Assembly (NCBI GenBank): GCA_027310625.1
Contig: DAIDAM010000003.1
Span: 67,278 to 131,277 of the forward strand
Reading direction: 5' to 3'
Length of the DNA stretch: 64,000 bases
From: a bacterium
GTDB lineage: Bacteria > Patescibacteriota > Minisyncoccia > UBA6257 > 2-01-FULL-56-20
Under the pieces are notes generated by a model, which was not told where the DNA came from, did no database searches, and saw only the letters and a list, made by a program, of their open reading frames with translations. Made by a program: the position numbers and the translations under genes. Positions within the stretch are counted from its first letter, which is position 1, and each line of letters opens with the position of its first letter. This document shows, piece by piece, positions 5,063 through 62,671 of the stretch.

Positions 5063-5864
5063 TTTCTACATTCGTTGCTTCATTTGGGGCAGAAACTATA
5101 ATCTTTCCCTCTTTTATGGCTTCACCGAGCTTTCCCAAAAACCAGGAAACGCTCGCTCTTGCTTTCGTATTCCCGACAACCGGATATTCAACCACCTCCG
5201 GATCGCAGTCCGTGTTCACATAGGCGACAATGGGAATCCCCGCGCGTTTCGCCTCGCGGATTGCAGCCGCATGCTGGCTCGGGTCTATGACGATAAGAAG
5301 TCCGGGCAACTCCGAATAATTTTCCAATCCGCCGAAAAGTTCGTCCAGCCGCTTCAGTTCCTTTTCAAATCCGAGCTGCTCTTTCTTTGTGTACTTCTGC
5401 ATCGCGCCGCTTTTGAATTCGGATTTAAGCTTTTTGTAATAATCTATTCTTTTCGATATCACTTTGAAATTGGTTATAAGCCCGCCGAGCCAGCGAACGT
5501 TGACGTACGGAATGCCGAATTCTTTTGCGAATCCCGCGACAGCTTCGGCGGCGTGCGGCTGCGTTCCAACAATCATGAATTTCCCGCCGCCTGCCTGCCC
5601 GCCTGCGCGGTCAGGCGCAGGCAAGCTTCTCGTTTTTTCTTTCACGAAACCGAGGGCGTTATTTAACCCATCCATCGTTTTCTGGAGATTTATTATCTCA
5701 ACCTCGTTCCTTGTCGCAAGAATATAAGGCCTCATGCGCGGATGGGTCTTTGACTTTTTCCTGCCGATGAAAACGCCAATGTCCGCAAGCTCCTTAAGCG
5801 CCCCCTCGGGATAAACGTCCGTTAAGTTGTCCTGTTTTACCTCGTTCATAATACATAAATACAA
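5019..5864 (-). CDS. rpsB: 30S ribosomal protein S2; the start may be the internal ATG at 5849; the C-terminus (ATSDQRQATSDK) is encoded by a 6x heptamer repeat
   Basis: S2 signature throughout; 3' end consists of tggtcgc/ttgtcgc x6. Confidence 0.9.
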   Translation of the reverse strand: MYLCIMNEVKQDNLTDVYPEGALKELADIGVFIGRKKSKTHPRMRPYILATRNEVEIINLQKTMDGLNNALGFVKEKTRSLPAPDRAGGQAGGGKFMIVGTQPHAAEAVAGFAKEFGIPYVNVRWLGGLITNFKVISKRIDYYKKLKSEFKSGAMQKYTKKEQLGFEKELKRLDELFGGLENYSELPGLLIVIDPSQHAAAIREAKRAGIPIVAYVNTDCDPEVVEYPVVGNTKARASVSWFLGKLGEAIKEGKIIVSAPNEATNVEKLATSDQRQATSDK

Positions 5865-6186
5865 ACATCAGCAATAATCAGCTCCTATCAGCATTTATCA
5901 GCGTTCGTGTCATGAATGAACTTTTTGCGCTGATTTATGCCGATTTTTGCCGATTTATGCTGATGCGGCCGAATAACATTAAAGATTGTAAGCGATGGCG
6001 GTTTTTTTGGCAAATTTAGCATGTTCAAAACTTCACCACTTCACCACCAATTTCCTAAGCCTACCATCGCCACATAAAAAATCTATTCCAATATTCTTAA
6101 GAATACTAGAATAGATTTTCGCAACTGCTTTCCGAAAAATTGCCCGTCAGTAGATTTCTGTATCACCATAGGGTAAACTTAACCAC

Positions 6187-10489: not shown

Positions 10490-11992
10490 CTATCTGATTG
10501 TGCCCCCGCCGAGCATTTCGTATTTCTCTGGTTTCTGGTCTCTGGTCTCTGGTCTCTTATAGTAGAACACAGCCGACTGACCTGCGGCGACGAACTTCTG
10601 CCCCTGCTCAAAGATGAGCAGCGCGGATTTGCGCGGATTAGACGCTGATTTGCGCGGATTTTTATCTGCGTTTATCTGCATATCGTCTGCGGGCATCAGC
10701 GTTGCAGGCGCGAGCGGTTGTCTGTACCTCACCCGCGCCAACACCTTATACCCCTTATTCGCACGAATTAGGGGTATAGTTTCCGAGTTGATGAAATTCA
10801 CATCGTGGAGTTTAATTTCTTTTCTGTACAACGCCGAATTGTCGCTCCCTTCTGCTACCACAAGCGTATTTGTTTCAACGTTTTTCTCAGCAACATAAAG
10901 CGGCTTGAAATCCGTTTTCTGCATAAGTCCGCGTTCTGTCTGTGTAAGTCCGCGATTGGTCATGCCAATATGTCTCTGCCCAATGGTGTAAAAATGCGCG
11001 CCGGAATGCCTGCCGATTTCTTCTCCGGCGGTATTCAAAACCGCGCCTTCTCTCGCGGGAAGATAACCGCCCAAAAACTCGGCGAGCGTAACTTTGCCGA
11101 GAAAGCAAATTCCCTGCGAATCTTTTTTCTCCGCCGTAGGCAAACCGGCTTTTCTCGCCATCGCCCGCACTTCTGACTTCAAATAATTGCCTATCGGGAA
11201 AAGGCAGTGTTGCAATTGCTCTTGCGTCAACGTCCAGAGAAAATATGACTGGTCTTTTTGCGCGTCACGCGCAGCGTATAGTTTATAACCATAACTCGAA
11301 TCTACGAATGTGCGCGAATTTGGCGAATTTAAAAAACTTTTATATTCGTTATATTCGCGCGAATTCGCGATATTCGAATTACGCATAAGCCGCACGTAGT
11401 GCCCGGTCGCCACGTAAATCCCTGCCTGCCGGCAGGCAGGCGCTCCCACGGACAGCGCTTTTTCCAAAAAGAGCCCGAACTTAATTTCCTTGTTGCACAT
11501 CACGTCCGGGTTGGGAGTAATGCCGCGGCGGTAACCGTCAACCATATAAGCGACGACTTTCTTTTTATATTCCTCCTCGAAATCCCAGATATAAAAAGGG
11601 ATTTCGAGTTTGCCGGCGACGCGGCGTGCGTCCTCGGCGTCTCTTTCCGCCTGACATTCATCGTCAAAATTTCCGCGCCCATCCGCGTTGAAATCCGCGT
11701 TAATCCGCGTGTTGGACGAAGTCCAACATTTCATAAAAACGCCGACGACATCGTAGCCATGGTTTTTAAGAAGCATGGCGGCGACTGAGGAATCAACCCC
11801 TCCACTCATTGCTACGAATACCTTTTTTTTACAAGCAAAGCCGCCAGCCTGCCTGCCATAGCCCTCGCCTTGCCGAAGCCGACGGCGAAGCGCAGGTTGG
11901 CGAAGGCGGGACATCCCCGCAAAAACTTTTTCTTTCCGTTTCTTCATGCGCCTATTTTTACATCGTCTTCTCCAATATATCAAATAAAACAA
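10490..11992 (-). CDS. mnmA: tRNA-specific 2-thiouridylase MnmA, with several in-frame repeat-derived insertions and a repeat-derived N-terminal extension
   Basis: SGGVDSS PP-loop, conserved MnmA core; low-complexity inserts (NPRKSASNPRKSAL, ETRDQKPEKYE). Confidence 0.85.
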   Translation of the reverse strand: MFYLIYWRRRCKNRRMKKRKEKVFAGMSRLRQPALRRRLRQGEGYGRQAGGFACKKKVFVAMSGGVDSSVAAMLLKNHGYDVVGVFMKCWTSSNTRINADFNADGRGNFDDECQAERDAEDARRVAGKLEIPFYIWDFEEEYKKKVVAYMVDGYRRGITPNPDVMCNKEIKFGLFLEKALSVGAPACRQAGIYVATGHYVRLMRNSNIANSREYNEYKSFLNSPNSRTFVDSSYGYKLYAARDAQKDQSYFLWTLTQEQLQHCLFPIGNYLKSEVRAMARKAGLPTAEKKDSQGICFLGKVTLAEFLGGYLPAREGAVLNTAGEEIGRHSGAHFYTIGQRHIGMTNRGLTQTERGLMQKTDFKPLYVAEKNVETNTLVVAEGSDNSALYRKEIKLHDVNFINSETIPLIRANKGYKVLARVRYRQPLAPATLMPADDMQINADKNPRKSASNPRKSALLIFEQGQKFVAAGQSAVFYYKRPETRDQKPEKYEMLGGGTIR

Positions 11993-14160: not shown

Positions 14161-14640
14161 CTAGTTGCTGGTTTCTGGTTTCTCCGATTTCAACTTTTTC
14201 AGCGCCTCCATTGCAGCAAGGGCGTTGGTAAGTTTGTTCGGTGTCCGGCCGAGACATTTCGCGGTCGCGTCTTTTATTCCAGCCAAAGCAAGCACGGAAC
14301 GCACCGCGCCGCCGGCTTTCAGCCCATGTCCCGCCGCAGCCGGTTTTATTAAAACCCTCGCCGCGCTGTATTTCGCGTAAACTTCGTGGCGAATCGTTCT
14401 GTTATCCTTCAAGTTAAGAGGGAGAATTTTTTTCTTGGCGGCGGACTTTGCTTTGTCCACGGCGTTTTGAACGTCAAGACCCTTCGCAACGCCGACGCCG
14501 ACTCTTCCTTTTTCGTCTCCGACGACAACAGTCGCTCTGAAGCGGAAACGTTTTCCGCCCGCAACGACGCGCGTAACGCGGCGGAGGTCAAGAACTTTCT
14601 CCTTAAATTCCTCTTTTTTGATGTATCTTTTTTCTCTCAT
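14161..14640 (-). CDS. rpsE: 30S ribosomal protein S5; adjacent to rplO with no L30 gene between
   Basis: S5 signature. Confidence 0.93.
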   Translation of the reverse strand: MREKRYIKKEEFKEKVLDLRRVTRVVAGGKRFRFRATVVVGDEKGRVGVGVAKGLDVQNAVDKAKSAAKKKILPLNLKDNRTIRHEVYAKYSAARVLIKPAAAGHGLKAGGAVRSVLALAGIKDATAKCLGRTPNKLTNALAAMEALKKLKSEKPETSN

Positions 14641-14752
14641 GTTTTTGTACTCATCAGTATAAATCAGTTTTAATCCGCATTAATCAGCGTTATGGAACTT
14701 TGAAACGCCGATATATGCTGATTTTGGCTGATCAATGCTGATTTATATCGGT
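14641..14752. repeat. intergenic palindromic element, ATCAGC/GCTGAT family
   Basis: ATCAGC-rich arm followed by GCTGAT-rich arm. Confidence 0.6.
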
Positions 14753-15112
14753 TCATATTTTTAATCCTTCTTTCCTTGATCCTTCAGCGACCGCTTTCAC
14801 TCTTCCGTGATATTTGTACGCGCCGCGGTCAAAAACGGCTTTTTTTATTCCCGACGCCAAGGCCTTTTTCGCAAGTTCAACGCCGATTGCTTCCGAACAT
14901 CCGACTTTTCCCCCGCTCACGGATTTTTTGGAGCCGAGACTTGAAACGCTCACCAAAGTCCTGCCTTTCTCGTCGTCAATAAGCTGGGCGTAAATGTTCC
15001 TGTTGCTTCTGAACACCGAAAGTCGCGGTTTTTCGGCGGTCCCGAAAATTTTCGCCCGCGCGCGCACACCGCGCCTGCTTCTTATTTCATTTAGCTTTTT
15101 TCTCTTTTGCAT
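14753..15112 (-). CDS. rplR: 50S ribosomal protein L18
   Basis: L18 signature. Confidence 0.93.
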   Translation of the reverse strand: MQKRKKLNEIRSRRGVRARAKIFGTAEKPRLSVFRSNRNIYAQLIDDEKGRTLVSVSSLGSKKSVSGGKVGCSEAIGVELAKKALASGIKKAVFDRGAYKYHGRVKAVAEGSRKEGLKI

Positions 15113-17312: not shown

Positions 17313-17630
17313 TTATATTCTTGCGCTGCACTTTTTGCAGTACCTTATTTTTTCTTTTACGCCGCCGGCGCTTTCAATGCGGAAGCCGACACGAACCGCC
17401 CTTTTGCAATTCGGACAAACGAGCATCGCCTTTGAGGCCGAGAACGGCCTCGGAACAAGAACCGTTTCCCCTTTCTGACCCTGCTGTTTGGGGCGAACGC
17501 GCTTCTTGTAAAGGTTAATTCCTTCAACGGCGATCATTGAGTCCCCGCTTAAAACGCGTAGAACCTTGCCGCTTTTGCCGCGGTCCTTGCCGCTCATTAT
17601 TTTCACTTGGTCTCCTTTCTTGATTTTCAT
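17313..17630 (-). CDS. rplX: 50S ribosomal protein L24 with a C-terminal CPNC…CKKC zinc-ribbon extension
   Basis: KOW motif plus C-terminal Cys4. Confidence 0.9.
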   Translation of the reverse strand: MKIKKGDQVKIMSGKDRGKSGKVLRVLSGDSMIAVEGINLYKKRVRPKQQGQKGETVLVPRPFSASKAMLVCPNCKRAVRVGFRIESAGGVKEKIRYCKKCSARI

Positions 17631-17635
17631 CTTTT

Positions 17636-17735
17636 TATTATCGCACGAATTTACGAATCTTTACGAACATACGAATTTACAGTAAGTAAAATTTAATCTA
17701 TTCGTAAGTTCGTAATTTATTCGCTTATTCGTGCG
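17636..17735. repeat. intergenic palindromic element, ACGAATTTACGAA…TTCGTAAGTTCGT family
   Basis: long imperfect inverted repeat. Confidence 0.6.
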
Positions 17736-18465: not shown

Positions 18466-18684
18466 TTACTTTTGTTTCTCGTTTATAAAAGTCAAAGCTC
18501 TCGCTATGTCCTTTTTGAGCGCTTTGATATCTTTCACGTTTTTCACCTTGCCTGCAGCCAAATCAAATTTCATCGCTCTCAATTTTTCGTCCGCATCGCT
18601 TACAAATTTTTTCAGCTCCGCGACCGGCTTCGTTTTAAGTTCGATTATTTCTTTTCTTTTCATTGTTTTGTGTTTTATCCGCAT
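18466..18684 (-). CDS. rpmC: 50S ribosomal protein L29
   Basis: L29 signature. Confidence 0.9.
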
Positions 18685-18765
18685 TAATCAGTTTAAATCA
18701 GCATCTGTCAGCGTTCAGGGCTCTACAAAAGCAATCGCCGCTGATTTATGCCGATTTTTGCGGAT
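18685..18765. repeat. intergenic palindromic element, ATCAGC/GCTGAT family
   Basis: ttaatcagtttaaatcagcatctgtcagcg … cgctgatttatgccgat. Confidence 0.6.
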
Positions 18766-19185
18766 TTATGCCGATGTTTTCATAACAATTGTGCTCTTGA
18801 AAGGAAGTTTGTGCGAAGCCCTGCGCAACGCTTCCTTTGCGTCTTCGCGGCTGATGCCGTCAACCTCAAAAATTATTCTTCCCGCTCTTACGGGAAAAAC
18901 ATAATGGTCAACGCTGCCCTTTCCGCCGCCCATTGTCGTTTCCGGAGGCCGCTGCGTTATCGGCTTGTCGGGGAAAACCCGTATCCAAAGACGGCCCTGA
19001 CGCTTGAGGAAGTGCGTTATTGCGCGGCGCGCGGCTTCTATCTGCCTCGAAGTGAGGCGCGCCGGCTCCGTCGCCTTAAGCCCATATTCTCCGTAGTTCA
19101 GCTCGAGGCCTCTCGTTTCCTTAAGTCGCCCTTTGGAGCGGCCCTTTTGCCATTTGCGATGTTTGACTTTTTTCGGTATCAACAT
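18766..19185 (-). CDS. rplP: 50S ribosomal protein L16
   Basis: L16 signature. Confidence 0.93.
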
Positions 19186-23821: not shown

Positions 23822-23900
23822 CTTTTTTATCGCTCGAATAAGCGAATATTACGAATTTACGAATTCGTATGTTCGTAAAAATTCGTAAATTCGCGCGATA
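23822..23900. repeat. intergenic palindromic element, ACGAATTT family
   Basis: cgaataagcgaatattacgaatttacgaattcgtatgttcgtaaaaattcgtaaattcg. Confidence 0.6.
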
Positions 23901-24163
23901 CCTAACAAAAACGCCGCCAAGGCATAGCCCCGCGGCCATATCCTTGTGGAATCCGCCCTGGGCGGACCATTAAAGAGACGGACAAAGTGTATATTAAACA
24001 AAGCAAGGTTGTCAACCAGGCAGTAGAAATGCGATTTGGATTAAAAAACTCAATCGCCGCAGGCGATTTTGGTCGCATTTTCGTTACCTGATCAATCGCA
24101 ACAAAAAAACCCGCGGTCAGGTTGACCCGGGTGGGCAGTAGGTCTGCCCGGTCCTTGCTGGAT

Positions 24164-29472: not shown

Positions 29473-29550
29473 TTAAGTATCGCACGAATTTACGAATTTT
29501 TACGAACATACGAATTCGTAAGTTCGTAATATTCGCTTATTCGAGCGATT
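29473..29550. repeat. intergenic palindromic element, ACGAATTT family
   Basis: cgcacgaatttacgaatttttacgaacatacgaattcgtaagttcgtaatattcgcttattcgagcg. Confidence 0.6.
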
Positions 29551-46385: not shown

Positions 46386-48944
46386 ATGTATCGCTTTTTA
46401 GAAATTTTTCCCGGAGCGCTTTCGTGGCTGACTCTTATCTTACTTGTTTCTCTTTCCCGCTACGCGCCGGCGTTCGTCGCCGTTTTCATCATACTTTTTG
46501 ACATCTACTGGCTTTTGAAAACGATTTATCTCTCGCTGCATCTCCGCTCAACTTTTTCGGTTATGAAAAAAAACCTGAAGGTGAACTGGCTCAATGAGCT
46601 GAAGGCACTGCCGCATAATCCCAATGGCCCGAATAGAATCCAAATGCCCCGAATTATAGAAAAGGATCTCTCTTATAAACTAAGCGGGGTTTTCTTCAAA
46701 GTTCATAACCAACTCGGCAGGTTCTGCAGAGAGCGTCAATATGGCGATGCCGTCGCAAAGGAACTTGAATCCCTCGGCGTAAATTTTCAGCGCGAAGTTG
46801 CCGTTGCGGTCGCCGGGCGAAAATCCAATTTCGTAGATTTTGTCGTTGAAAGCAAAATCGCAATAGAACTGAAGACGAAAGACATAATTGACAAAGAAGA
46901 TTATTTCCAACTTCAAAGATACCTTAAAGCGCTGGGATTGGAATTGGGCATAATAGTCAACTTTAGAAGAAAACACTTGAATCCCAAACGCGTTCTCAAT
47001 TCTGACTTCCTTTACAAGTATTCGGCTGATTCAGATACATTCGGCAATTCGGATTATGTGGTCAATAGATATTCGGACAATTCGGATTCATTCGGATATT
47101 CGGATTATGTGAAATCCTGGGAAGACATTTATCATTTGGTGATATTGCCGATGTACCGCGAGCCGTACGAGGTCGTGAAAGGAAGTTTTGAAAGCATATC
47201 TAAAGGAAACTATCCGCTGGAAAAGTTAATTGTCGTCCTGGCGACGGAAGAACGCGCCGGCGCCGAAGCGAGGAAAACGGCTGAGAAAATCAGGCGCGAG
47301 TTCGGCGGCAAATTTTTCAAGTTTTTGATTACCACGCACCCCGCGAATCTCCCCGGCGAAATTCCCGGCAAGGGTTCCAACGAAACCTGGGCGGCGAAAG
47401 AGGCGAAAAGATTAATCATTGACCCACTGGTCAATGCGCAGACCTACGCAGACAACACGCAGACCGACGCAGAAAACGATTTTCTGTATCCAGACCTGAC
47501 ATATGAAATCAGAGGTGCGATATTTTCCATTAAGAAAAAGCTCGGCCTCGGACACAAAGAAGTTGTTTATCAAAAAGCACTGGAAGAGGAATTTAATCGA
47601 CTAGGTTTGAATTTCGAAAAAGAAAAAACGGTGGATATTGCATATAATAACAAAAAAGTTGGTGTCTACCGCCCAGATTTTGTAATTGAGGATAAAATTA
47701 TTTTGGAACTGAAGGCATTACCATTTATGGGCAAATATGAAAAAAGGCAAGTTTGGCAGTATTTAAAAGGAACGGAATATAAACTAGCTATGTTGGTAAA
47801 CTTCGGCGGTAGCGATATTCGCATAGATAGAATAGTTTACGACACAGCTCGCGCAAGTCAGCGTAAGTCTGCGTTAAGTCAGCGAGAGTCAGCGCTGAAA
47901 TATGAAAATGTTTTAGTGTCGGTTTTCGACATTGACACACAGATATTTCCGGAGTATTTCGGGCGCCTCACATATGTCTTTTTGAAATCCGAAGACAAAT
48001 TGCAGGCGATTTACCAGCCGATACCGCTTTTCATAAATAACATCTACGACGCGCCGGCGCTCGCGCGCGTGATTTCCTTTTCAAGCACCTTCTGGCAGAT
48101 GATGCAGCAGTCGCGGCCGGAACGGCTGACGTCTTTTTCGTCGCAGTCAATCCCCTTGCGGGCGCTCATTGACATCGGCTACTGGCACAAAAACGTCGTC
48201 TCCGAGGACTCGCGGATTTTCTGGCAGTGCTATCTCCGCTATCACGGGAACTTCCGCGTCGAACCGCTTTTTTACCCGGTTTCGATGGACGCCAACGCCG
48301 CGCCGACATTTTGGAGAACGCTCAAAAATAATTACTTGCAGCACCGCCGCTGGGCCTGGGGCTGCGAAAACATTCCCTACTTGCTCTGCGGCAAACATAA
48401 TCCGAATCCACGAATGCATCCGAATAACACGAATAGGAGTCCAGATAATAAATTAGATTCGGAACATTCGGATAGATTCGGGGATTCGGATTATGCGGAG
48501 GGTTTCCTCCACAACAAAAAAATCCCTCTCCGCAAAAAGCTCTACTGGTCGTTCAATGTAATTGAAGGATTCCATTCCTGGGCGACGAACGCGCTGATAA
48601 TTTTCGCTCTCGGCTGGCTGCCCGTTCTTTTGGGCGGAGAAGGTTTCGGGATTTCCATTTTGTCGCGGAGCCTGCCTTCGATTACAAGATTCATCATTCA
48701 ACTCTCGATGGTCGGAGTCGCCACCGCCGCTTTCTTCAGCATTCTTCTTCTGCCGCCGCGAAAAGAACCTCTCGAATGGCATCAGTATATTTGGTATCTC
48801 CTCCAATGGCTTCTTCTGCCCGCGACACTCATAATTTTCGGGTCCATCCCCGCGCTCGAGGCGCAAACGCGGCTGATGGTCGGCGGAAAATGGCGGCTCG
48901 GATTCTGGCCGACGCCGAAAACGAGAACCAATAATAGAAGCTAG
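46386..48944 (+). CDS. processive family-2 glycosyltransferase (cellulose-synthase-like; GKGxN, DxD, Q(H)RRW motifs) carrying two in-frame GxxExxY domain insertions (~46644-47000 and ~47481-47840) plus heptamer-repeat tracts
   Basis: GT2 motifs VILPMYREP, GKGSNETWAAKEA, VFDIDTQ, QHRRWAWG; inserted segments each align with the free-standing GxxExxY gene at 28546. Confidence 0.8.
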   Translation: MYRFLEIFPGALSWLTLILLVSLSRYAPAFVAVFIILFDIYWLLKTIYLSLHLRSTFSVMKKNLKVNWLNELKALPHNPNGPNRIQMPRIIEKDLSYKLSGVFFKVHNQLGRFCRERQYGDAVAKELESLGVNFQREVAVAVAGRKSNFVDFVVESKIAIELKTKDIIDKEDYFQLQRYLKALGLELGIIVNFRRKHLNPKRVLNSDFLYKYSADSDTFGNSDYVVNRYSDNSDSFGYSDYVKSWEDIYHLVILPMYREPYEVVKGSFESISKGNYPLEKLIVVLATEERAGAEARKTAEKIRREFGGKFFKFLITTHPANLPGEIPGKGSNETWAAKEAKRLIIDPLVNAQTYADNTQTDAENDFLYPDLTYEIRGAIFSIKKKLGLGHKEVVYQKALEEEFNRLGLNFEKEKTVDIAYNNKKVGVYRPDFVIEDKIILELKALPFMGKYEKRQVWQYLKGTEYKLAMLVNFGGSDIRIDRIVYDTARASQRKSALSQRESALKYENVLVSVFDIDTQIFPEYFGRLTYVFLKSEDKLQAIYQPIPLFINNIYDAPALARVISFSSTFWQMMQQSRPERLTSFSSQSIPLRALIDIGYWHKNVVSEDSRIFWQCYLRYHGNFRVEPLFYPVSMDANAAPTFWRTLKNNYLQHRRWAWGCENIPYLLCGKHNPNPRMHPNNTNRSPDNKLDSEHSDRFGDSDYAEGFLHNKKIPLRKKLYWSFNVIEGFHSWATNALIIFALGWLPVLLGGEGFGISILSRSLPSITRFIIQLSMVGVATAAFFSILLLPPRKEPLEWHQYIWYLLQWLLLPATLIIFGSIPALEAQTRLMVGGKWRLGFWPTPKTRTNNRS
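47000..47115. repeat. ATTCGGA/ATTCGGC heptamer-type repeat tract encoding …DSDTFGNSDYVVNRYSDNSDSFGYSDY… inside the GT2 gene; a similar tract at ~48405-48490
   Basis: period-7 direct repeats. Confidence 0.7.
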
Positions 48945-48959
48945 AATATAGAATTTAGA

Positions 48960-50172
48960 ATGAAAAAAATAAAAACGATTCTCGCGATTGAAACAAGTTG
49001 CGACGAAACGGGGATTGCTCTTGTTGAAGCGAAAGGTGGTTTTGCTTCGCCGAAATTCAGAGTCCTGAAAAACCTCGTGAGTTCACAGATAAAAATTCAC
49101 CGTCCTTTCGGCGGCGTCGTGCCGGGACTCGCCAAGCGCGAACACATCAAGAATCTTCCGAAACTTTTTCGGAAGATTCTTGTAAATTCTAAATCCGGAA
49201 TCCGGAATCCGAAACAAATTTCAAATTTCAAATTTCAAACATTGATTTAATTGCCGTCACCGTCGGTCCCGGGCTTGAACCGGCGCTGTGGACGGGAATA
49301 ACTTTTGCGCAAGAATTGCGCAAGCGACTAGCAACCAGAGACCAGAGACAAGAAAAGAAAATAAAAATTATCGGAGTGAACCATTTAGAAGGACATCTCT
49401 ACAGTTTTCTTTTGCGGCAGCAAAAGAAAACTGCAAATCAGAAATCAGAAATCAGAAACGTAAAAATTTGGGATTTCATGCTTCAAATTTGAGATTTCCA
49501 GCTATTGTTTTGCTGGTGAGCGGCGGACATACGGCTCTTCTCTTGATGAAAAATTTAAGAAAATGGAAAAAACTCGGGGAAACGCGGGATGACGCGGCGG
49601 GCGAAGCATTCGATAAAGTCGCAAGAATGCTCGGCCTCCCCTATCCCGGCGGTCCGGAAATCGAAAAACTGGCGAAAGAAGGTGACGCAGACGCGATAAA
49701 TTTTCCGCGCCCGATGCTCAACCAGAAAAATTACGATTTCAGTTTTTCGGGAATAAAAACGGCGGTATTTTACTATCTTAGAGACCGAATCTCTTACGAA
49801 AATACGAAAACATACGAAAGTACCAAAACGAAAAATAAATTTCGTAATTTCGCGCCGTTTCGTACTTTCGTAAGTAAGGCCGATATCGCCGCTTCGTTTC
49901 AAAAGGCGGTCGTTGAAACACTTGTCAAAAAAGTGGAACGGGCGGCGAAAGAATACGGGGCGTGCTCGCTCATTCTCTGCGGCGGAGTTGCGGCGAACAA
50001 GGTGTTGCGCGAAAATATGCGAAAAGCTGCTCACAAAATAAACGCGGAATTCATCGCGCCGCCGATGGAATACAACAACGATAACGCTGCGATGATTGCG
50101 GCCGCGGGATATTTCGCCTCGCTCCGGAGCAGAAAATTGCCGCTCAAGGCCGACGGCGATTTGAATATATAG
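48960..50172 (+). pseudogene. tsaD: tsaD (tRNA N6-threonylcarbamoyladenosine synthesis, Kae1/YgjD family) split into three reading frames by two -1 frameshifts, each inside a heptamer-repeat tract (49186-49240; 49425-49492)
   Basis: N-terminal ([11 protein letters not shown]…[16 protein letters not shown]) in frame 0; middle ([12 protein letters not shown]…VNHLEGHL) in frame 2; C-terminal (FPAIVLLVSGGHT…DDAAGEAFDKVARMLGLPYPGGP…) in frame 1. Confidence 0.75.
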
Positions 50173-50214
50173 TCATGTTAATCTTAAATTCTCAACAATC
50201 TCAAATTCTCAACT

Positions 50215-50250
50215 TGTTAACATTTTACGCGATCGCGTAAAATGTTAACA
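50215..50250. promoter_or_regulatory. 36-bp perfect palindrome TGTTAACATTTTACGCGATCGCGTAAAATGTTAACA
   Basis: perfect inverted repeat; a second near-identical copy at 50819-50853. Confidence 0.6.
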
Positions 50251-50304: not shown

Positions 50305-50811
50305 TTAAATTATCTCGGCTTCTTTTGCCTCAAAAAATTTAATATATGGGAAAAGTTGAAGTTTTCTCAAAGATTCGACAAATTGTTCCGGCAATGGCGC
50401 CGGTCCAAGCCATAAACTCTTTTGAAGCATCTCGAATCCAAGACATAAAAGCTCGGCTCTCAACCAATCGCGTTTTTTCTTATGTATCTCTGGGACATCA
50501 AAAGAAATGACAATACTTTTGGGATTTCGCTTGGCAGTTTTTTCGCTGTGGGTCGGGAAAAGAGAAATTTTGTTTGCAAAGTATCCGCGCCCGGCTTTTG
50601 TAAGCCGCCATATACCCTTTTTATTTTCTACAAATCCCCTCTTTTTGAGACGTGAAAGTGTAACACGTATCGCAGAATCAGAAGCATCCTCAAAACCGCG
50701 ATAAATTCTACCATCAGAAAAAGGACTTGCACCGCTTAATTTTCTGCGCATCAAACGATAGCCGTCGTGATAACTGAATAAAATAGTCAAGATGTCATCC
50801 GTTAATCCCAT
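50305..50811 (-). CDS. winged-helix regulator-like protein (PaaX-like N-terminal HTH: RVTLSRLKKRGFVENKKGIWRLTKAGRGYF); function unknown
   Basis: wHTH-like segment; gene bracketed by two copies of a 34-36 bp palindrome. Confidence 0.45.
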   Translation of the reverse strand: MGLTDDILTILFSYHDGYRLMRRKLSGASPFSDGRIYRGFEDASDSAIRVTLSRLKKRGFVENKKGIWRLTKAGRGYFANKISLFPTHSEKTAKRNPKSIVISFDVPEIHKKKRDWLRAELLCLGFEMLQKSLWLGPAPLPEQFVESLRKLQLFPYIKFFEAKEAEII

Positions 50812-50818
50812 TTCAAAA

Positions 50819-50853
50819 TATTAACATTTTCAGCGATCGCGTAAAATGTTAAT
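50819..50853. promoter_or_regulatory. second copy of the TTAACATTTT(C/A)(A/C)GCGATCGCGTAAAATGTTAA palindrome
   Basis: near-perfect inverted repeat. Confidence 0.6.
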
Positions 50854-50864
50854 AAAAATTTTCA

Positions 50865-53800
50865 TTGAAAAGATTGAACAGGTTGAGACAATCCCTTAAA
50901 ATAAAATCAATGTCGGAGATTTTGGAACCGCGATACGACCACCAAAAGCACGAAAAGGAAATTTACGAACTCTGGGAAAAGAGCGGGTATTTTAATCCGG
51001 ATAATTTGCCTACGGCAAGTTCGGAGTTCGGAGTTCGAAGTTCGAAGAATAAAAAAATATCTCAAACGAAACCTCGAACCTCGAACCTCGAACCGTTTTC
51101 CATTATCATGCCTCCGCCGAACGCGAACGGCTCGCTACATCTCGGGCACGCCGTGTTCGTCGCGTTGCAGGACATACTCATAAGATTCTGGCGCATGCGC
51201 GGCAAAAAAGCGCTCTGGCTTCCGGGGGCGGACCACGCCGGCTTTGAAACGCAGGTTGTCTTCGACAAAAAACTTGAAAAGGAAGGGCGGAATAGATTCA
51301 CCATTCCGCGCGAGGAACTTTTCAAAGAAATCTGGGACTTCACCCAGCACAATAAAAAAATAATGGAAGAGCAGTTGCGTAAACTCGGAGCGTCGTGCGA
51401 CTGGAGCCGCGAAAAATTCACGCTTGACCCGGCAATCATTAGAATCGTCTATGAAACTTTTGAAAAACTTTACAAGGACGGACTTCTTTACCGCGATTTG
51501 CGCGTCGTCAACTGGTGTCCGAAACACAAAACCGCGCTCTCCGACCTGGAAGTGAAGCACGAAGAGCGTCTGGACCAGCTCTACTACATAAAGTATGGGC
51601 CACTAACATTAGCGACAGTGAGACCGGAAACGAAATTCGGCGACACGGCGCTTGCCGTGAACCCGAAGGACAAACGCTATTCAAAATACATCGGAAAAGA
51701 AATACGCGCCTTGGGCCTGCTCGGCAAACTCACATTCAAAGTCATCGCCGACGAAGCCGTTGACCCGAAATTCGGGACGGGGGTCATTAAGGTCACGCCC
51801 GCGCATGACCCCGCGGACTTTGAAATCTGGCAAAGGCACAAAAAAGAAATTCCCGGTCCGAAAATAATCATTGACGAAAACGGGCGGCTTACCGGCGAAA
51901 CAGGAAAATTCGCAGGGATGAAAGTCGCGGAAGCGAGAATAAAAGTCGCCGAAGCGATGAAAGAAATCGGCATTCTTGAAAAAGTTGAGAACGATTACAA
52001 ACACTCCGTTGCCGTCTGCTACAAGTGCGGCAACGTGCTCGAGCCGATTCCGAAGATGCAATGGTTCATCGCCATGACGGCGAAACCGCATCAATCAAGA
52101 GACCGGAGACCGGAGACTGGAGACCGGAAAAAATCGTTGCGCGATTTGGGAATCGAGGCAGTTGAAAAGAAAAAAATAAAATTTTATCCGGCGCATTCCA
52201 AAAAAGTCATTCTTCATTGGCTGAAAAATATCCGCGACTGGAACATTTCGCGGCAAATCGTCTGGGGCATAAGAATCCCCGTCTGGTACTGCCTCGCCTG
52301 CTCCGCCCGCCCCGAGAGCAATCGAGGGGAGCCGAAGATAAACATTAATCAGGAAGTGAAATCGCGCTGGTTTCTCGTAAGGCACGGGGAAACGGATTGG
52401 AACAAGGAAGGACGCATAATGGGACAATCCGACATTCCACTCAATAAAACTGGGATGGCGCAGGCGGAAGAAGCCGCGCGGGAATTAAAGCCGCACAAGG
52501 TAGATCTTATTATAAGTTCTGACTCGGCGCGCTGTCGCCAAACTGCGGAAATAATTAAAAAAGAGACGGGCGCGGAAATAATCCTCGAAAAAAAATTAAG
52601 AGAGCGCCACCACGGAGACATCGAGGGATTGCTACGAAAGGATGTTTTTGAACAATATCCCCGTATTTACGAATACAGCTACGAAGGCAAATATATGAAT
52701 GCCGAAAGCTATCGCGAATTGGAAGAGCGCGCATGGGAAGTTTTCTCGTCGCACCATTCAAGGCACGGCCATAAAAACGTCGTTTTGATTACGCACGGTG
52801 GGACGATTAGGATGCTTATAAAAAGAATAAAAAATCTTACTCCGGAAGCGGCTCTCTCAATACCTTCCAGAAAAAACGCGGAGATAATCCAGCTTGACGT
52901 TTTGGATAAATGCGAAAATTGCGGCGGACATTTTTACGAGCAGGACCCCGACGTTTTTGACACCTGGTTCTCGTCCGGGCAATGGCCGTTTGCGACGCTG
53001 ATGACGAGCGACAAAAAAATGGGTTTCCATGAAGAAGTTGTCCCGCAGGTTTTGGACGGCAAAACCAAGACATACCGCTTGCGCGACCACGGATTCAAGG
53101 TCGGCGACAAGGTTTTGTTTGAAAACTCCGCTACCAAAAAAATCTTCGGATATGGAATTATCACGGAAGCAAAAAAAACCACGATAGACAAAATAGATTA
53201 CACAGACAAAAGCCATTACAAAACCTATAAAAATCTGGACGAGTTGATGACGGCGTTCAAACACAAGAACCCAGAAAAAACTTTTACTTCCAAATCTCCT
53301 GCTTATCTTTACGCTTACGATTTTTACCCGGCGAAAAATTTGGAGACCGACTTCGAAACTTTTTATCCGACCGATGTGATGGAAACCGGATACGACATAC
53401 TTTTCTTCTGGGTGGCGAGGATGGTCATGCTCGGAATTTACACGACGGGAAAAATTCCTTTCAGAACTGTTTATCTCCACGGCTTGGTTCTCGACAAAGA
53501 CAAAAAGAAAATGTCCAAGTCCAAAGGCAACGTTATTGACCCGCTCGGCGTCGCCGAAATTTACGGAAGCGACGCGCTCCGCATGGCGCTGGTCGCCGGC
53601 AACACCGCCGGCAAGGATATCGTCATCTCCGAAGACAAAATCCGCGGCTACAGGAATTTTGCGACGAAAGTGTGGAACATCAGCCGATTCATTTTAATGA
53701 ATAAAATGAAAGACATCAGACATCAGACATCAGACATCAGGGTAAAATTAACGGCTTCAGACAAAAAAAATATTGCGGAAGCCGAAAAAATCAAAGATAA

Positions 53801-54176
53801 AGTCGGAAAACACATTGAAAAATTCGAGTTTCATCTCGCGGCGGAAACGGCATACCATTACATCTGGCATACCTTCGCCGACAAAATAATTGAAGAATAT
53901 AAGCCGCGACTAAAAGCCGAAACGGGTTCCGAGGAAGCTCTCGGAGGCGCGGCGAGCTCGGCATCCGGAGGATTCGCCGCGCCGAGAGCGCAGGCGGGCG
54001 CTCGCCGCAGGAGCGAGCGAACCGCCGATTCCGAGGGGCCCGTTGCGGCTTATCAAACACTGGAAGCAATTCTTCTGGAATGCTTGAAAATGCTCCATCC
54101 GTTTATGCCGTTCATAACGGAGGCGATATTTCAGAAGCTAAACAAAGGAGAAATGCTGATGATAGAAAGATGGTAA
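50865..54176 (+). CDS. valS: valine-tRNA ligase with an embedded histidine-phosphatase (PGAM-like) domain (~52360-52910), a second ~100-aa insertion, heptamer tracts and a GC-rich C-terminal insertion
   Basis: HIGH (PPPNANGSLHLGH) and KMSKS motifs, editing domain; insert has RHGETDWN, RERHHGD and ITHGG motifs of the histidine phosphatase superfamily. Confidence 0.9.
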   Translation: MKRLNRLRQSLKIKSMSEILEPRYDHQKHEKEIYELWEKSGYFNPDNLPTASSEFGVRSSKNKKISQTKPRTSNLEPFSIIMPPPNANGSLHLGHAVFVALQDILIRFWRMRGKKALWLPGADHAGFETQVVFDKKLEKEGRNRFTIPREELFKEIWDFTQHNKKIMEEQLRKLGASCDWSREKFTLDPAIIRIVYETFEKLYKDGLLYRDLRVVNWCPKHKTALSDLEVKHEERLDQLYYIKYGPLTLATVRPETKFGDTALAVNPKDKRYSKYIGKEIRALGLLGKLTFKVIADEAVDPKFGTGVIKVTPAHDPADFEIWQRHKKEIPGPKIIIDENGRLTGETGKFAGMKVAEARIKVAEAMKEIGILEKVENDYKHSVAVCYKCGNVLEPIPKMQWFIAMTAKPHQSRDRRPETGDRKKSLRDLGIEAVEKKKIKFYPAHSKKVILHWLKNIRDWNISRQIVWGIRIPVWYCLACSARPESNRGEPKININQEVKSRWFLVRHGETDWNKEGRIMGQSDIPLNKTGMAQAEEAARELKPHKVDLIISSDSARCRQTAEIIKKETGAEIILEKKLRERHHGDIEGLLRKDVFEQYPRIYEYSYEGKYMNAESYRELEERAWEVFSSHHSRHGHKNVVLITHGGTIRMLIKRIKNLTPEAALSIPSRKNAEIIQLDVLDKCENCGGHFYEQDPDVFDTWFSSGQWPFATLMTSDKKMGFHEEVVPQVLDGKTKTYRLRDHGFKVGDKVLFENSATKKIFGYGIITEAKKTTIDKIDYTDKSHYKTYKNLDELMTAFKHKNPEKTFTSKSPAYLYAYDFYPAKNLETDFETFYPTDVMETGYDILFFWVARMVMLGIYTTGKIPFRTVYLHGLVLDKDKKKMSKSKGNVIDPLGVAEIYGSDALRMALVAGNTAGKDIVISEDKIRGYRNFATKVWNISRFILMNKMKDIRHQTSDIRVKLTASDKKNIAEAEKIKDKVGKHIEKFEFHLAAETAYHYIWHTFADKIIEEYKPRLKAETGSEEALGGAASSASGGFAAPRAQAGARRRSERTADSEGPVAAYQTLEAILLECLKMLHPFMPFITEAIFQKLNKGEMLMIERW

Positions 54177-55506: not shown

Positions 55507-55794
55507 ATGCGACATTGCGCAATTTGCGGAAAAGGTTCAATAATCGGAGGTAGAAGGAAGCTCCTGCGCGGGCATTACAATCCCGTTTCGAAATCGAGAA
55601 AATACCCCAATCTTCAGTGGGCCCGCCTGCCATCGCCTGCGGCTCAGTCCTCTGGCGGGCAGGCGAGAATCCCCGCCAAAGGCGGGTCCCTGCCCGACGG
55701 CGGGCGCGGCGCCTCGGGTGGAAATGGCGTACGAAAACTTATCTGCGCTCAATGCTTAAAAACGTTGAACCGCAAAGCCAAGACGAAAAAATGA
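55507..55794 (+). CDS. rpmB: 50S ribosomal protein L28 carrying a ~33-aa GC-rich in-frame insertion (55620-55720)
   Basis: L28 N- and C-terminal conserved segments (MRHCAICGKG…; …RKLICAQCLKTLNRK) separated by a Gly/Pro/Ala-rich segment of ~70% GC. Confidence 0.75.
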   Translation: MRHCAICGKGSIIGGRRKLLRGHYNPVSKSRKYPNLQWARLPSPAAQSSGGQARIPAKGGSLPDGGRGASGGNGVRKLICAQCLKTLNRKAKTKK

Positions 55795-62491: not shown

Positions 62492-62494
62492 GTT

Positions 62495-62660
62495 TTTATG
62501 GTATCCGCATTAATCAGCTGTCATCCGCATTTATCAGCGTTCTTGCTGTGAAAAAGTTTTTGACGCTGATTTACCTGCCCGCCGAAGCCCTCGCCTTGCC
62601 GAAGCCGACGGCGAAGCGCAGGTCGGCGCAGGCGGGTGCCGATTTTGACGGATTTATGCT
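62495..62660. repeat. intergenic element: ATCAGC/GCTGAT arms plus a GC-rich segment (GCCCTCGCCTTGCCGAAGCCGACGGCGAAGCGCAGGT) that is also found inside the mnmA 5' region (11858-11895)
   Basis: 38-nt near-identity between 62582-62620 and 11858-11895. Confidence 0.65.
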
Positions 62661-62671
62661 GATATTCCATT

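Follow-up and report, generated by a model that had tools for sequence, protein, structure and literature searches.

Aminoacyl-tRNA synthetases (aaRSs) are among the most conserved of enzymes, and catalytic domains that are nested in their Rossmann-fold core, instead of being appended at an end, are unusual in bacteria. In a 64,000-nucleotide stretch of a Patescibacteria contig (DAIDAM010000003.1; the whole stretch is hereafter called the window), the gene for valyl-tRNA synthetase (ValRS), valS, carries two such guests in frame: a complete histidine phosphatase that separates the two halves of the zinc knuckle of the CP3 subdomain, and, in the surface loop of the Rossmann fold that comes next, a second module that is predicted to have the ASCH fold of the YqfB kind, YqfB being an N4-acetylcytidine (ac4C) amidohydrolase (Table 1). 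As judged from their relatives, both modules are captured genes that exist also in free-standing form, and we infer that both are active enzymes. In many Patescibacteria, the only valS that can be seen has the phosphatase in its CP3 knuckle. A search of the literature turned up no account of a histidine phosphatase or an ASCH domain nested in ValRS, and the name that NCBI usually gives to the insert-bearing proteins, just ‘class I tRNA ligase family protein’, is so generic that the architecture is hidden in the annotation. Below we draw on profile searches, structure prediction and the comparison of relatives to describe the two modules, their distribution and the functions they may serve.

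The synthetase that hosts the inserts

The open reading frame (ORF) at 50865..54176 of the forward strand is unbroken and would encode 1103 amino acids if read from a TTG codon; the public NCBI protein P0001 is its product from the ATG at 50910 (1088 residues, identity 100%). Despite the inserts the protein scores above the cut-offs of two valS models, with 788.4 bits against 704 for the NCBIfam equivalog NF004349 and 732.6 bits against 612.1 for TIGR00422, and Pfam places tRNA-synt_1 (2.8e-110), Anticodon_1 and His_Phos_1 on the ORF. The best match in the PDB is the ValRS of Thermus thermophilus (1GAX, E=8e-150). The HIGH and KMSKS signatures, the CP1 editing motifs and Anticodon_1 are all present in the correct order, as befits a class Ia enzyme; the columns of the editing motifs TVRPETKFGD and GTGVIKVTPAHD are invariant or almost so in alignment A1, and conservation there reaches at least 90% for the two cysteines of the first half of the knuckle (C461 and C464). 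The first-pass annotation of this DNA, made from its letters alone, had described the ValS core motifs as intact on both sides of the inserts, and HLGH, KMSKS and the editing motifs are indeed all in place.

The order tsaD-valS-prsW-hsp20 is common to the window, to the insert-free loci L015 and L016 and to the insert-bearing GTDB species representative L017, and the locus is therefore an orthologous housekeeping one. Going by its motifs, profile scores and position, the window gene is the ordinary housekeeping valS of the organism, and the enzyme probably retains both the charging of tRNA-Val and the editing of Thr-tRNA-Val. It shares HIGH, KMSKS, the CP1 editing domain and the CP3 knuckle (WYCxxC...CxxC) with T. 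thermophilus ValRS (1GAX/1IVS/1IYW) and differs from it in three respects. The knuckle hairpin, ~14 residues (422-436) in T. thermophilus, is a 203-residue stretch that includes the whole phosphatase; the loop after WPxxTL holds the 112-residue ASCH domain; and the protein ends, in the alignment with 1GAX, at the equivalent of residue ~705, so that the C-terminal coiled coil is absent. In the T. thermophilus ValRS complex, this coiled-coil domain touches the tRNA elbow. All of the Patescibacteria ValRS homologues retrieved end at the same equivalent position without the domain, including the insert-free relatives (forms of 697-761 residues).

Table 1. Features of the insert-bearing valS gene, in window coordinates.
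Feature	Position	Strand	Basis or remark
valS coding sequence (1088 aa + stop)	50910..54176	+	ORF; NCBIfam; identical to P0001; best PDB match 1GAX
heptamer-repeat hairpin insert, in frame, aa 37-61	51017..51094	+	Tandem Repeats Finder (TRF): AAGTTCG x4.4, AACCTCG x3.6
HIGH-type signature HLGH, class I catalytic site	51138..51149	+	sequence position; aligned to 1GAX
editing (CP1) motifs TVRPETKFGD and GTGVIKVTPAHD	51615..51809	+	aligned to 1GAX segments
heptamer repeat GAGACCG x4.3, in frame, aa 392-408	52099..52128	+	TRF
CP3 zinc knuckle, first half CLAC	52290..52301	+	aligns with WYCEDC of 1GAX
nested histidine-phosphatase domain (His_Phos_1, branch 1, ‘type 1’)	52371..52904	+	Pfam, PhoE match, AlphaFold2
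CP3 zinc knuckle, second half CENC	52911..52922	+	aligns with CEAC, 1GAX residues 436-441
nested module, predicted ASCH fold (YqfB-like)	53019..53354	+	loop DTWFSSGQWPF / FYPTDVMETG; AlphaFold2 and Foldseek
KMSKS signature	53508..53522	+	sequence position; aligned to 1GAX
heptamer repeat AGACATC x4.3, in frame, aa 935-946	53711..53740	+	repeat family D15; TRF
GC-rich C-terminal insert, aa 1004-1048, 144 nt	53916..54059	+	GC island; nucleic-acid hairpin

A histidine phosphatase between the knuckle halves

The Pfam family His_Phos_1 (PF00300) matches residues 503-680 of the 1103-residue ORF with E=3.5e-50 (170.8 bits against a cut-off of 21.7) and over profile positions 2-182 of 194, which makes the domain full-length; searched alone, it gives 1.4e-51 and 175.4 bits. 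The insert breaks the alignment with 1GAX exactly between residues 422 and 436, that is, between the knuckle halves WYCEDC and CEACGS. In the homologous isoleucyl-tRNA synthetase (IleRS), this region is the CP3 subdomain, which connects CP2 with the latter half of the catalytic fold and whose topology and zinc site differ among species (PMC7191050). A histidine-phosphatase domain embedded in frame between the zinc-knuckle halves was the central claim of the first-pass annotation, and it is borne out by the profile match within a protein that exceeds the valS cut-off. The motifs quoted for it were all located as described (VWYCLAC 52281-52301, RHGETDWN 52380-52403, RERHHGD 52599-52619, ITHGG 52788-52802 and CENCGG 52911-52928), and its coordinates were correct to ~10 nucleotides. 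Nor does the segment belong to the normal ValS fold: in an orthologue alignment typical ValRS do not have it, nor do close relatives free of inserts, where 14-20 residues stand in its place.

AlphaFold2, run with a 64-sequence alignment, gives a predicted local distance difference test (pLDDT) of 92-98 over most of the phosphatase and a predicted template-modelling score of 0.78 for the whole model; a discrete domain is thus what the model predicts. The catalytic-core motifs RHGETDWN, SDSAR, RERHHGD and ITHGG are present and align to those of PhoE. Across 86 embedded copies, the catalytic residues are retained as R8 in 83, H9 (the nucleophile) in 84, N15 in 82, R58 in 86, E82 (the acid) in 81 and H146 in 86, so that six positions are 94-100% conserved in a domain in which ~55% of positions differ overall between copies (~45% identity). 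This pattern bears directly on the reading of the insert as a catalytically irrelevant structural or tRNA-binding appendage, for example a scaffold that makes up for the missing coiled coil. The early end of the synthetase would fit such a role, as would the loss of the histidine nucleophile in 2 of the 86 copies and of the glutamate in 5, but the conservation of the catalytic residues against so variable a background makes a purely structural role unlikely, and since the insert-free relatives also do without the coiled coil no compensation for it is required. We consider an appendage of this kind very improbable. An intein or other self-splicing insert is rejected: no Hint or intein family was found in Pfam and NCBIfam scans of the whole window protein, and the insert is a complete enzyme domain between two CxxC motifs.

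The closest solved structure is that of PhoE (1EBB/1H2E, E=8e-21). Among NCBIfam profiles the best is the alpha-ribazole phosphatase CobC (TIGR03162), for which the domain scores 121.7-127.1 bits against a cut-off of 162.9. The dPGM models are likewise missed, TIGR01258 with 63.7-68 bits against 81.7 and over the N-terminal 100 residues only, and NF038349 with 76-80 against 225; the PRK dPGM models are all far under their cut-offs, GpmB is under its own, and the phosphoserine phosphatase PspA (NF045917) gives 83.6-88.6 bits against 350. Because the CobC, dPGM, GpmB and PspA cut-offs are all missed, the window domain is best classified, by its profile scores, as a short branch-1 histidine phosphatase that is PhoE/CobC-like and not a canonical phosphoglycerate mutase. 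It resembles PhoE of Geobacillus stearothermophilus and CobC in its size class (~180-200 residues) and its catalytic residues, and differs in that these are free-standing enzymes and it is nested in another enzyme; the specificity of CobC is not transferable to it, given the score under the TIGR03162 cut-off. The mycobacterial RNase H/acid phosphatase (NF005567) and MutT1 (NUDIX + RHG) also pair a CobC/PGAM-like domain with an enzyme of nucleic acids or nucleotides, and the window protein has weak to moderate matches to their profiles (E=7e-24 and 2.3e-6). Both of those are end-to-end fusions with other partner enzymes, unlike the nested arrangement in the window, and the role of the RHG domain in MutT1 is itself unresolved (PMC11784022).

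A second nested module of the ASCH fold

The first-pass annotation had also marked a second insert of ~100 residues, which proves to be real. It comprises ~112 residues (704-815 of P0001), and its first residue corresponds to the initiator methionine of the free-standing gene. Modelled by AlphaFold2 with its free-standing homologues it reaches a pLDDT of 82.5, and in a Foldseek search against the PDB the top 19 matches are all ASCH proteins (YqfB, ZmASCH, EF3133, AF2351, PH0355), with template-modelling scores of 0.55-0.67 and a probability of ~1.0, the best being the Escherichia coli ac4C amidohydrolase YqfB (9kyf, E=1.6e-5). The Pfam family ASCH (PF04266) gives the window copy 17.3 bits against a cut-off of 21.2 (E=0.008) and matches 7 of 24 family members, the best at E 2e-5; some embedded relatives exceed the cut-off (P0290 with 43.4 bits, P0291 with 28.5 and P0277 with 26.7). 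A family profile run against PDB sequences returned only sub-threshold matches to an endosialidase beta-barrel. None of the 24 members departs from K15-x-x-T18-x-R20 or from E75; the spacing of the K/T/R residues equals that of K21/T24/R26 of YqfB, whose acidic residue is E74, a correspondence at the level of sequence. Taken together, the structural model and this spacing point to a YqfB-like ASCH fold for the second insert.

In YqfB, the lysine and the threonine are reported to be essential, and 19 ASCH proteins strip ac4C from tRNA, with Lys and Thr/Glu being essential (bioRxiv 10.64898/2026.02.27.708502). Free ac4C is deacetylated for salvage by EOLA1/YqfB, and for the YqfB/EOLA1-type clade fusions to HAD phosphatases and a closeness to ribosomes have been reported. 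The window insert shares the beta-barrel fold and the K-x-x-T-x-R spacing of these ac4C amidohydrolases and tRNA ac4C erasers; it differs from YqfB in having only ~20% sequence identity to it, in the glycine of the octapeptide, which is shifted by one position, and in being nested in ValRS.

The CP3 loop as an insertion hot spot

The distribution of the inserts was followed in the best 120 homologue clusters at 90% identity, drawn from NCBI, JGI, ENA and Logan. A histidine phosphatase sits in the CP3 loop in 88 of these, and the named members of the insert-bearing clusters are all Patescibacteria (Candidatus Liptonbacteria, Wolfebacteria, Paceibacterota, Parcubacteria and ‘Patescibacteria group’). 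Nearly all of them have 188-203 residues between the two CxxC motifs; in the relatives with a knuckle and nothing else (P0099 and P0109) this distance is 14 residues, and in P0102 and P0079, which have neither knuckle nor insert, the loop measures ~20 residues. A scan of GTDB genomes with back-translated universal ValRS motifs yielded at least one locus with the full architecture (L017) among the matches listed, and tells little about distribution. These data effectively refute an artefact, whether a chimera made in assembly, two genes fused by a frameshift or a pseudogene in decay. The genome is of the metagenome type and rich in repeats, and the adjacent tsaD is broken over two frames, but the architecture stands in a single open frame of 1103 codons, recurs in 88 independent clusters from many samples and sources as well as in the species representative, and has a precise insertion point between two conserved CxxC motifs.

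Among the relatives, the CP3 loop, which lies between WGIRIPAW and QDPDVFDTWFSS, holds at least six different contents. It may be empty, or hold a bare zinc knuckle, a type-1 phosphatase, an ASCH module (P0033, P0049, P0059, P0063 and P0072), a tandem of ASCH and phosphatase (P0002 and P0013), a different ASCH (P0071), unrelated sequences of ~70-80 residues (P0089 and P0111) or, in P0075, a phosphatase of a different type (FVHGTTTDNE..WRPGWEY) with no knuckle. The insert of P0075 has its closest relatives among free-standing ‘type-2’ genes (the gene of locus L014 is 36% identical to it, with E=9e-32) and falls outside the type-1 group, and a phosphatase was therefore captured at this loop at least two times. 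Besides the type-1 phosphatase, the loop has accepted at least five further kinds of insert. Such variety among sequences marks the CP3 loop as a recurrent insertion hot spot of Patescibacteria ValRS, one that by all appearances has repeatedly gained, lost or exchanged phosphatase and ASCH modules. The earlier remark that domain insertions in aaRS cores are rare must be qualified accordingly for this clade.

In a neighbor-joining tree of the ValRS core (drawn without support values), insert-bearing and insert-free forms are interleaved. Between closely related hosts the phosphatase evolves ~5x faster than the core, as in P0009 and P0012, whose cores differ by 8.5% and whose domains differ by 45%; an insert that changes this fast while keeping its catalytic residues is one in which constraint is focused on the catalytic site. 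Distances of phosphatase and core correlate weakly (r=0.18), and a single origin with co-divergence was rejected on this ground, although the weak correlation mostly reflects fast evolution of the insert and does not prove the swapping of cassettes (P0009/P0012 loops). In the second loop, an ASCH module is present in the window protein and in P0015. The two modules are 83% identical, the cores 58% and the phosphatase domains 53% (P0001 residues 681-840), and the excess of module over core identity suggests that the ASCH cassette was transferred laterally or recombined between the two lineages.

The first-pass annotation had also raised the possibility of a fusion with a separate PGAM-like gene next to valS. 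No His_Phos gene adjoins valS at the insert-free orthologous loci L015 and L016, and a simple read-through fusion with an adjacent type-1 gene is rejected on this account; in the Patescibacteria locus L019, whose valS has no insert, a free type-2 gene follows 1.6 kb downstream of it. Within the window, a hidden Markov model search of all six-frame ORFs found no second phosphatase or ASCH gene.

Free-standing relatives and other hosts

When the phosphatase or ASCH segment was searched in isolation, all the proteins retrieved were free-standing and embedded copies that are 50-85% identical were missed, so that such searches are unusable for counting hosts; the survey of hosts comes instead from a HMMER representative search with the ASCH module. 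Free-standing type-1 phosphatases of ~200-218 residues are 43-49% identical to the insert. One of them, P0125 (47% identical), lies directly after tuf and between rpsJ (S10) and rplC (L3) at two loci (L001 8001-8657 and L002 1266-1922), an unusual place for such a gene, inside the S10 ribosomal-protein operon. The free-standing ASCH genes encode 105-133 residues, are 54-60% identical to the insert and start, as it does, with MGFH; in all three independent contexts examined, the gene lies between grpE and dnaK-dnaJ (L009 6001-6318, L012/L013 6001-6357 and L014 6001-6345). A GNAT acetyltransferase gene is found upstream of it in L009 and a methyltransferase gene downstream of it in L014.

In L014 the free ASCH gene comes directly after a type-2 phosphatase gene, and in P0275 (282 residues) the two are fused. 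More widely, the ASCH module is fused to a type-2 phosphatase, L23, FtsY, a NUDIX domain, archaeal uS4 and archaeal L32e (P0275, P0277, P0279, P0280, P0281 and P0283), and in the three fusions whose sequences were read (P0275, P0277 and P0280) the initial Met-Gly-Phe is kept. The synthetases that host the module were ValRS in six of six tested, and in four (P0001, P0002, P0013 and P0015) the same ValRS carries a phosphatase as well.

What the two modules may do

The function that we regard as best supported, with a confidence that stops somewhat short of even, is the processing of RNA ends and breakdown products or of tRNA by a phosphatase/deacylase pair carried on translation proteins. This reading draws on the links of phosphatase with ASCH, of ASCH with NUDIX, ribosomal proteins and ValRS and of phosphatase with the S10 operon and valS, together with the published removal of ac4C. 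In such a scheme, which would operate near the translation machinery, the phosphatase would take a phosphate off an RNA end or a nucleotide; N4-acylated cytidine, in tRNA or as free nucleoside or nucleotide, would be the substrate that the ASCH module deacylates for salvage or repair; and ValRS would serve both modules as a permissive, constitutively expressed and tRNA-binding platform.

Several observations weigh against it. Other free type-1 relatives lie among sugar-phosphate genes, next to a G6PD-6PGD fusion and PGI and next to RpiB/PdxA, and neighbors of this kind favor a metabolic role. The ASCH-linked phosphatase outside ValRS is of type 2 and only 27% identical to the type-1 domain of the window, which reduces the link between type 1 and ASCH to their co-residence in 4 of ~93 insert-bearing ValRS. 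The window phosphatase lies under every NCBIfam equivalog cut-off; its evolution at ~5x the rate of the core would fit loosely constrained cargo; and the insert is unnecessary for aminoacylation, since many close relatives do without any.

Some of these points are shared by the main alternative, which we hold to be less probable but a serious contender, namely that the phosphatase is unrelated metabolic cargo: a general sugar-phosphate or small-metabolite phosphatase or mutase lodged in a permissive loop of an essential, constitutively expressed gene, with a chemistry unconnected to tRNA or RNA. The broad specificity of PhoE, its closest solved relative, the sugar genes beside the free copies and the pace of its evolution all suit such cargo, as do the patchy presence of the insert among close relatives, the acceptance of unrelated inserts by the same loop in P0089 and P0111, and the insert-rich appearance of other window proteins, such as an 852-residue protein with a PDDEXK_3 domain. 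Harder to reconcile with cargo are the independent capture of two unrelated phosphatase types at one loop, the recurrence of phosphatase with ASCH both inside and outside ValRS, the free copies in the S10 operon and near valS, and the scores below the dPGM, PspA and CobC cut-offs.

The phosphatase could also act in cis on aminoacylation, in line with the first-pass annotation, which had named the aminoacyl-adenylate and the tRNA 3' end as possible targets besides unrelated cargo; it would then be an accessory that works on valyl-adenylate, AMP, pyrophosphate or a 3'-phosphorylated or 2',3'-cyclic-phosphate end of tRNA-Val (repair before charging), or that regulates ValRS. Its place in CP3, a subdomain of the catalytic core, its conserved catalytic residues and the finding that ValRS was the host in all six aaRSs tested for the partner ASCH module speak for this view. 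We nevertheless think it quite improbable: relatives whose loop has 14-20 residues, or carries inserts of another sort altogether, occupy the same locus and evidently work as housekeeping ValRS, and a direct role in ValRS chemistry is unlikely when close relatives do without the insert. Moreover, we know of no histidine phosphatase that acts on acyl-adenylates or cyclic phosphates.

A bolder form of the RNA-processing reading, which we consider unlikely as things stand, would have a modular kit for RNA repair or the salvage of modified nucleotides (a histidine phosphatase, an ASCH N4-acylcytidine deacylase and sometimes NUDIX) circulate in Patescibacteria and small archaea, the latter being included because of the ribosomal-protein fusions, and be grafted whole into surface loops of ValRS and onto ribosomal proteins and FtsY. 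If this were true, ValRS would take on a further role, as a platform for removing terminal phosphates and erasing ac4C on tRNA, or for recycling modified nucleotides at the site of translation, and an aaRS would have acquired a second and a third catalytic activity aimed at RNA. A class Ia synthetase with an added enzymatic domain is already known as a kind, since NCBI has curated NF040702, ‘isoleucine--tRNA ligase, N-acetyltransferase domain-containing’; its host is IleRS and its guest GNAT, and the window protein, at 143 bits against a cut-off of 1999, is not a member. Whatever the substrates, the variety of CP3 contents offers a natural map of the tolerance of a class Ia synthetase for large insertions, and the family lets one study how loops take up whole genes in organisms with reduced genomes. 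It also provides a testable link between a histidine phosphatase, a domain of the ac4C-eraser type and the translation apparatus, with a bearing on the recycling or repair of modified RNA in organisms without de novo nucleotide synthesis.

Small repeat-like inserts and neighboring genes

In addition to the two domains, valS contains four short inserts that look like repeat elements tolerated within a coding sequence, reminiscent of the palindromic elements of Rickettsia. The first of these (51017-51094) has a fold energy of -34.2 kcal/mol (z=-3.7) and a pLDDT below 50 at residues 38-56, and the second (52099-52128) amounts to ~10 extra residues relative to 1GAX. The GC-rich C-terminal insert that the first-pass annotation had pointed out is also real: it forms a long hairpin (-93.1 kcal/mol, z=-6.2) and is predicted to be disordered in the protein (pLDDT below 50 at residues 1012-1038). 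It has no family match in the Pfam and NCBIfam scans, and a repeated mobile element is rejected for it, there being no second copy within the window. An L28-like small ORF (55507-55794, +) has a GC island (55603-55749) that encodes a Gly/Arg/Ser/Ala-rich insert, similar in composition to the C-terminal insert of valS and with a predicted fold that is not significantly stable (z=-1.35).

The heptamer inserts of valS are of the same kind as the repeats that crowd the intergenic regions of the genome. In the window, these regions hold many repeat families with a period of 7-10 nucleotides (ATCAGC.., ACGAATT.., GGTCGCT.., AGTTTC..), arranged as inverted pairs or hairpins, for example at 5857-5975, 14633-14763, 18667-18796, 17630-17677, 23829-23909, 29473-29549 and 62493-62664; a census of positions 1-64000 counts 39 direct families and 39 inverted pairs.

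Upstream of valS, tsaD (48960-50172) is split over at least two frames, the first of which stops after 96 codons, while an ORF at 49288-50172 holds the C-terminal half; the junction holds heptamer repeats (49192-49239, 49334-49353 and 49435-49458) and a hairpin. The gene could have become a pseudogene, or the split could stem from an error of assembly or from the insertion of a repeat. Between tsaD and valS, a 35-nucleotide inverted repeat (50214-50248 / 50821-50855, 91% complementary) brackets a minus-strand ORF (50305-50811) of 168 codons with a PaaX central Cas2-like domain; at this position, L016 has a minus-strand gene of 144 residues and L015 has none. The 852-residue protein mentioned above, encoded at 46386-48944 (+), combines its PD-(D/E)XK (PDDEXK_3) domain with a glycosyltransferase, and an MnmA-like tRNA methyltransferase of 500 residues, encoded at 10490-11992 (-), has a HUP domain that extends over 245 residues against a profile of 202 positions.

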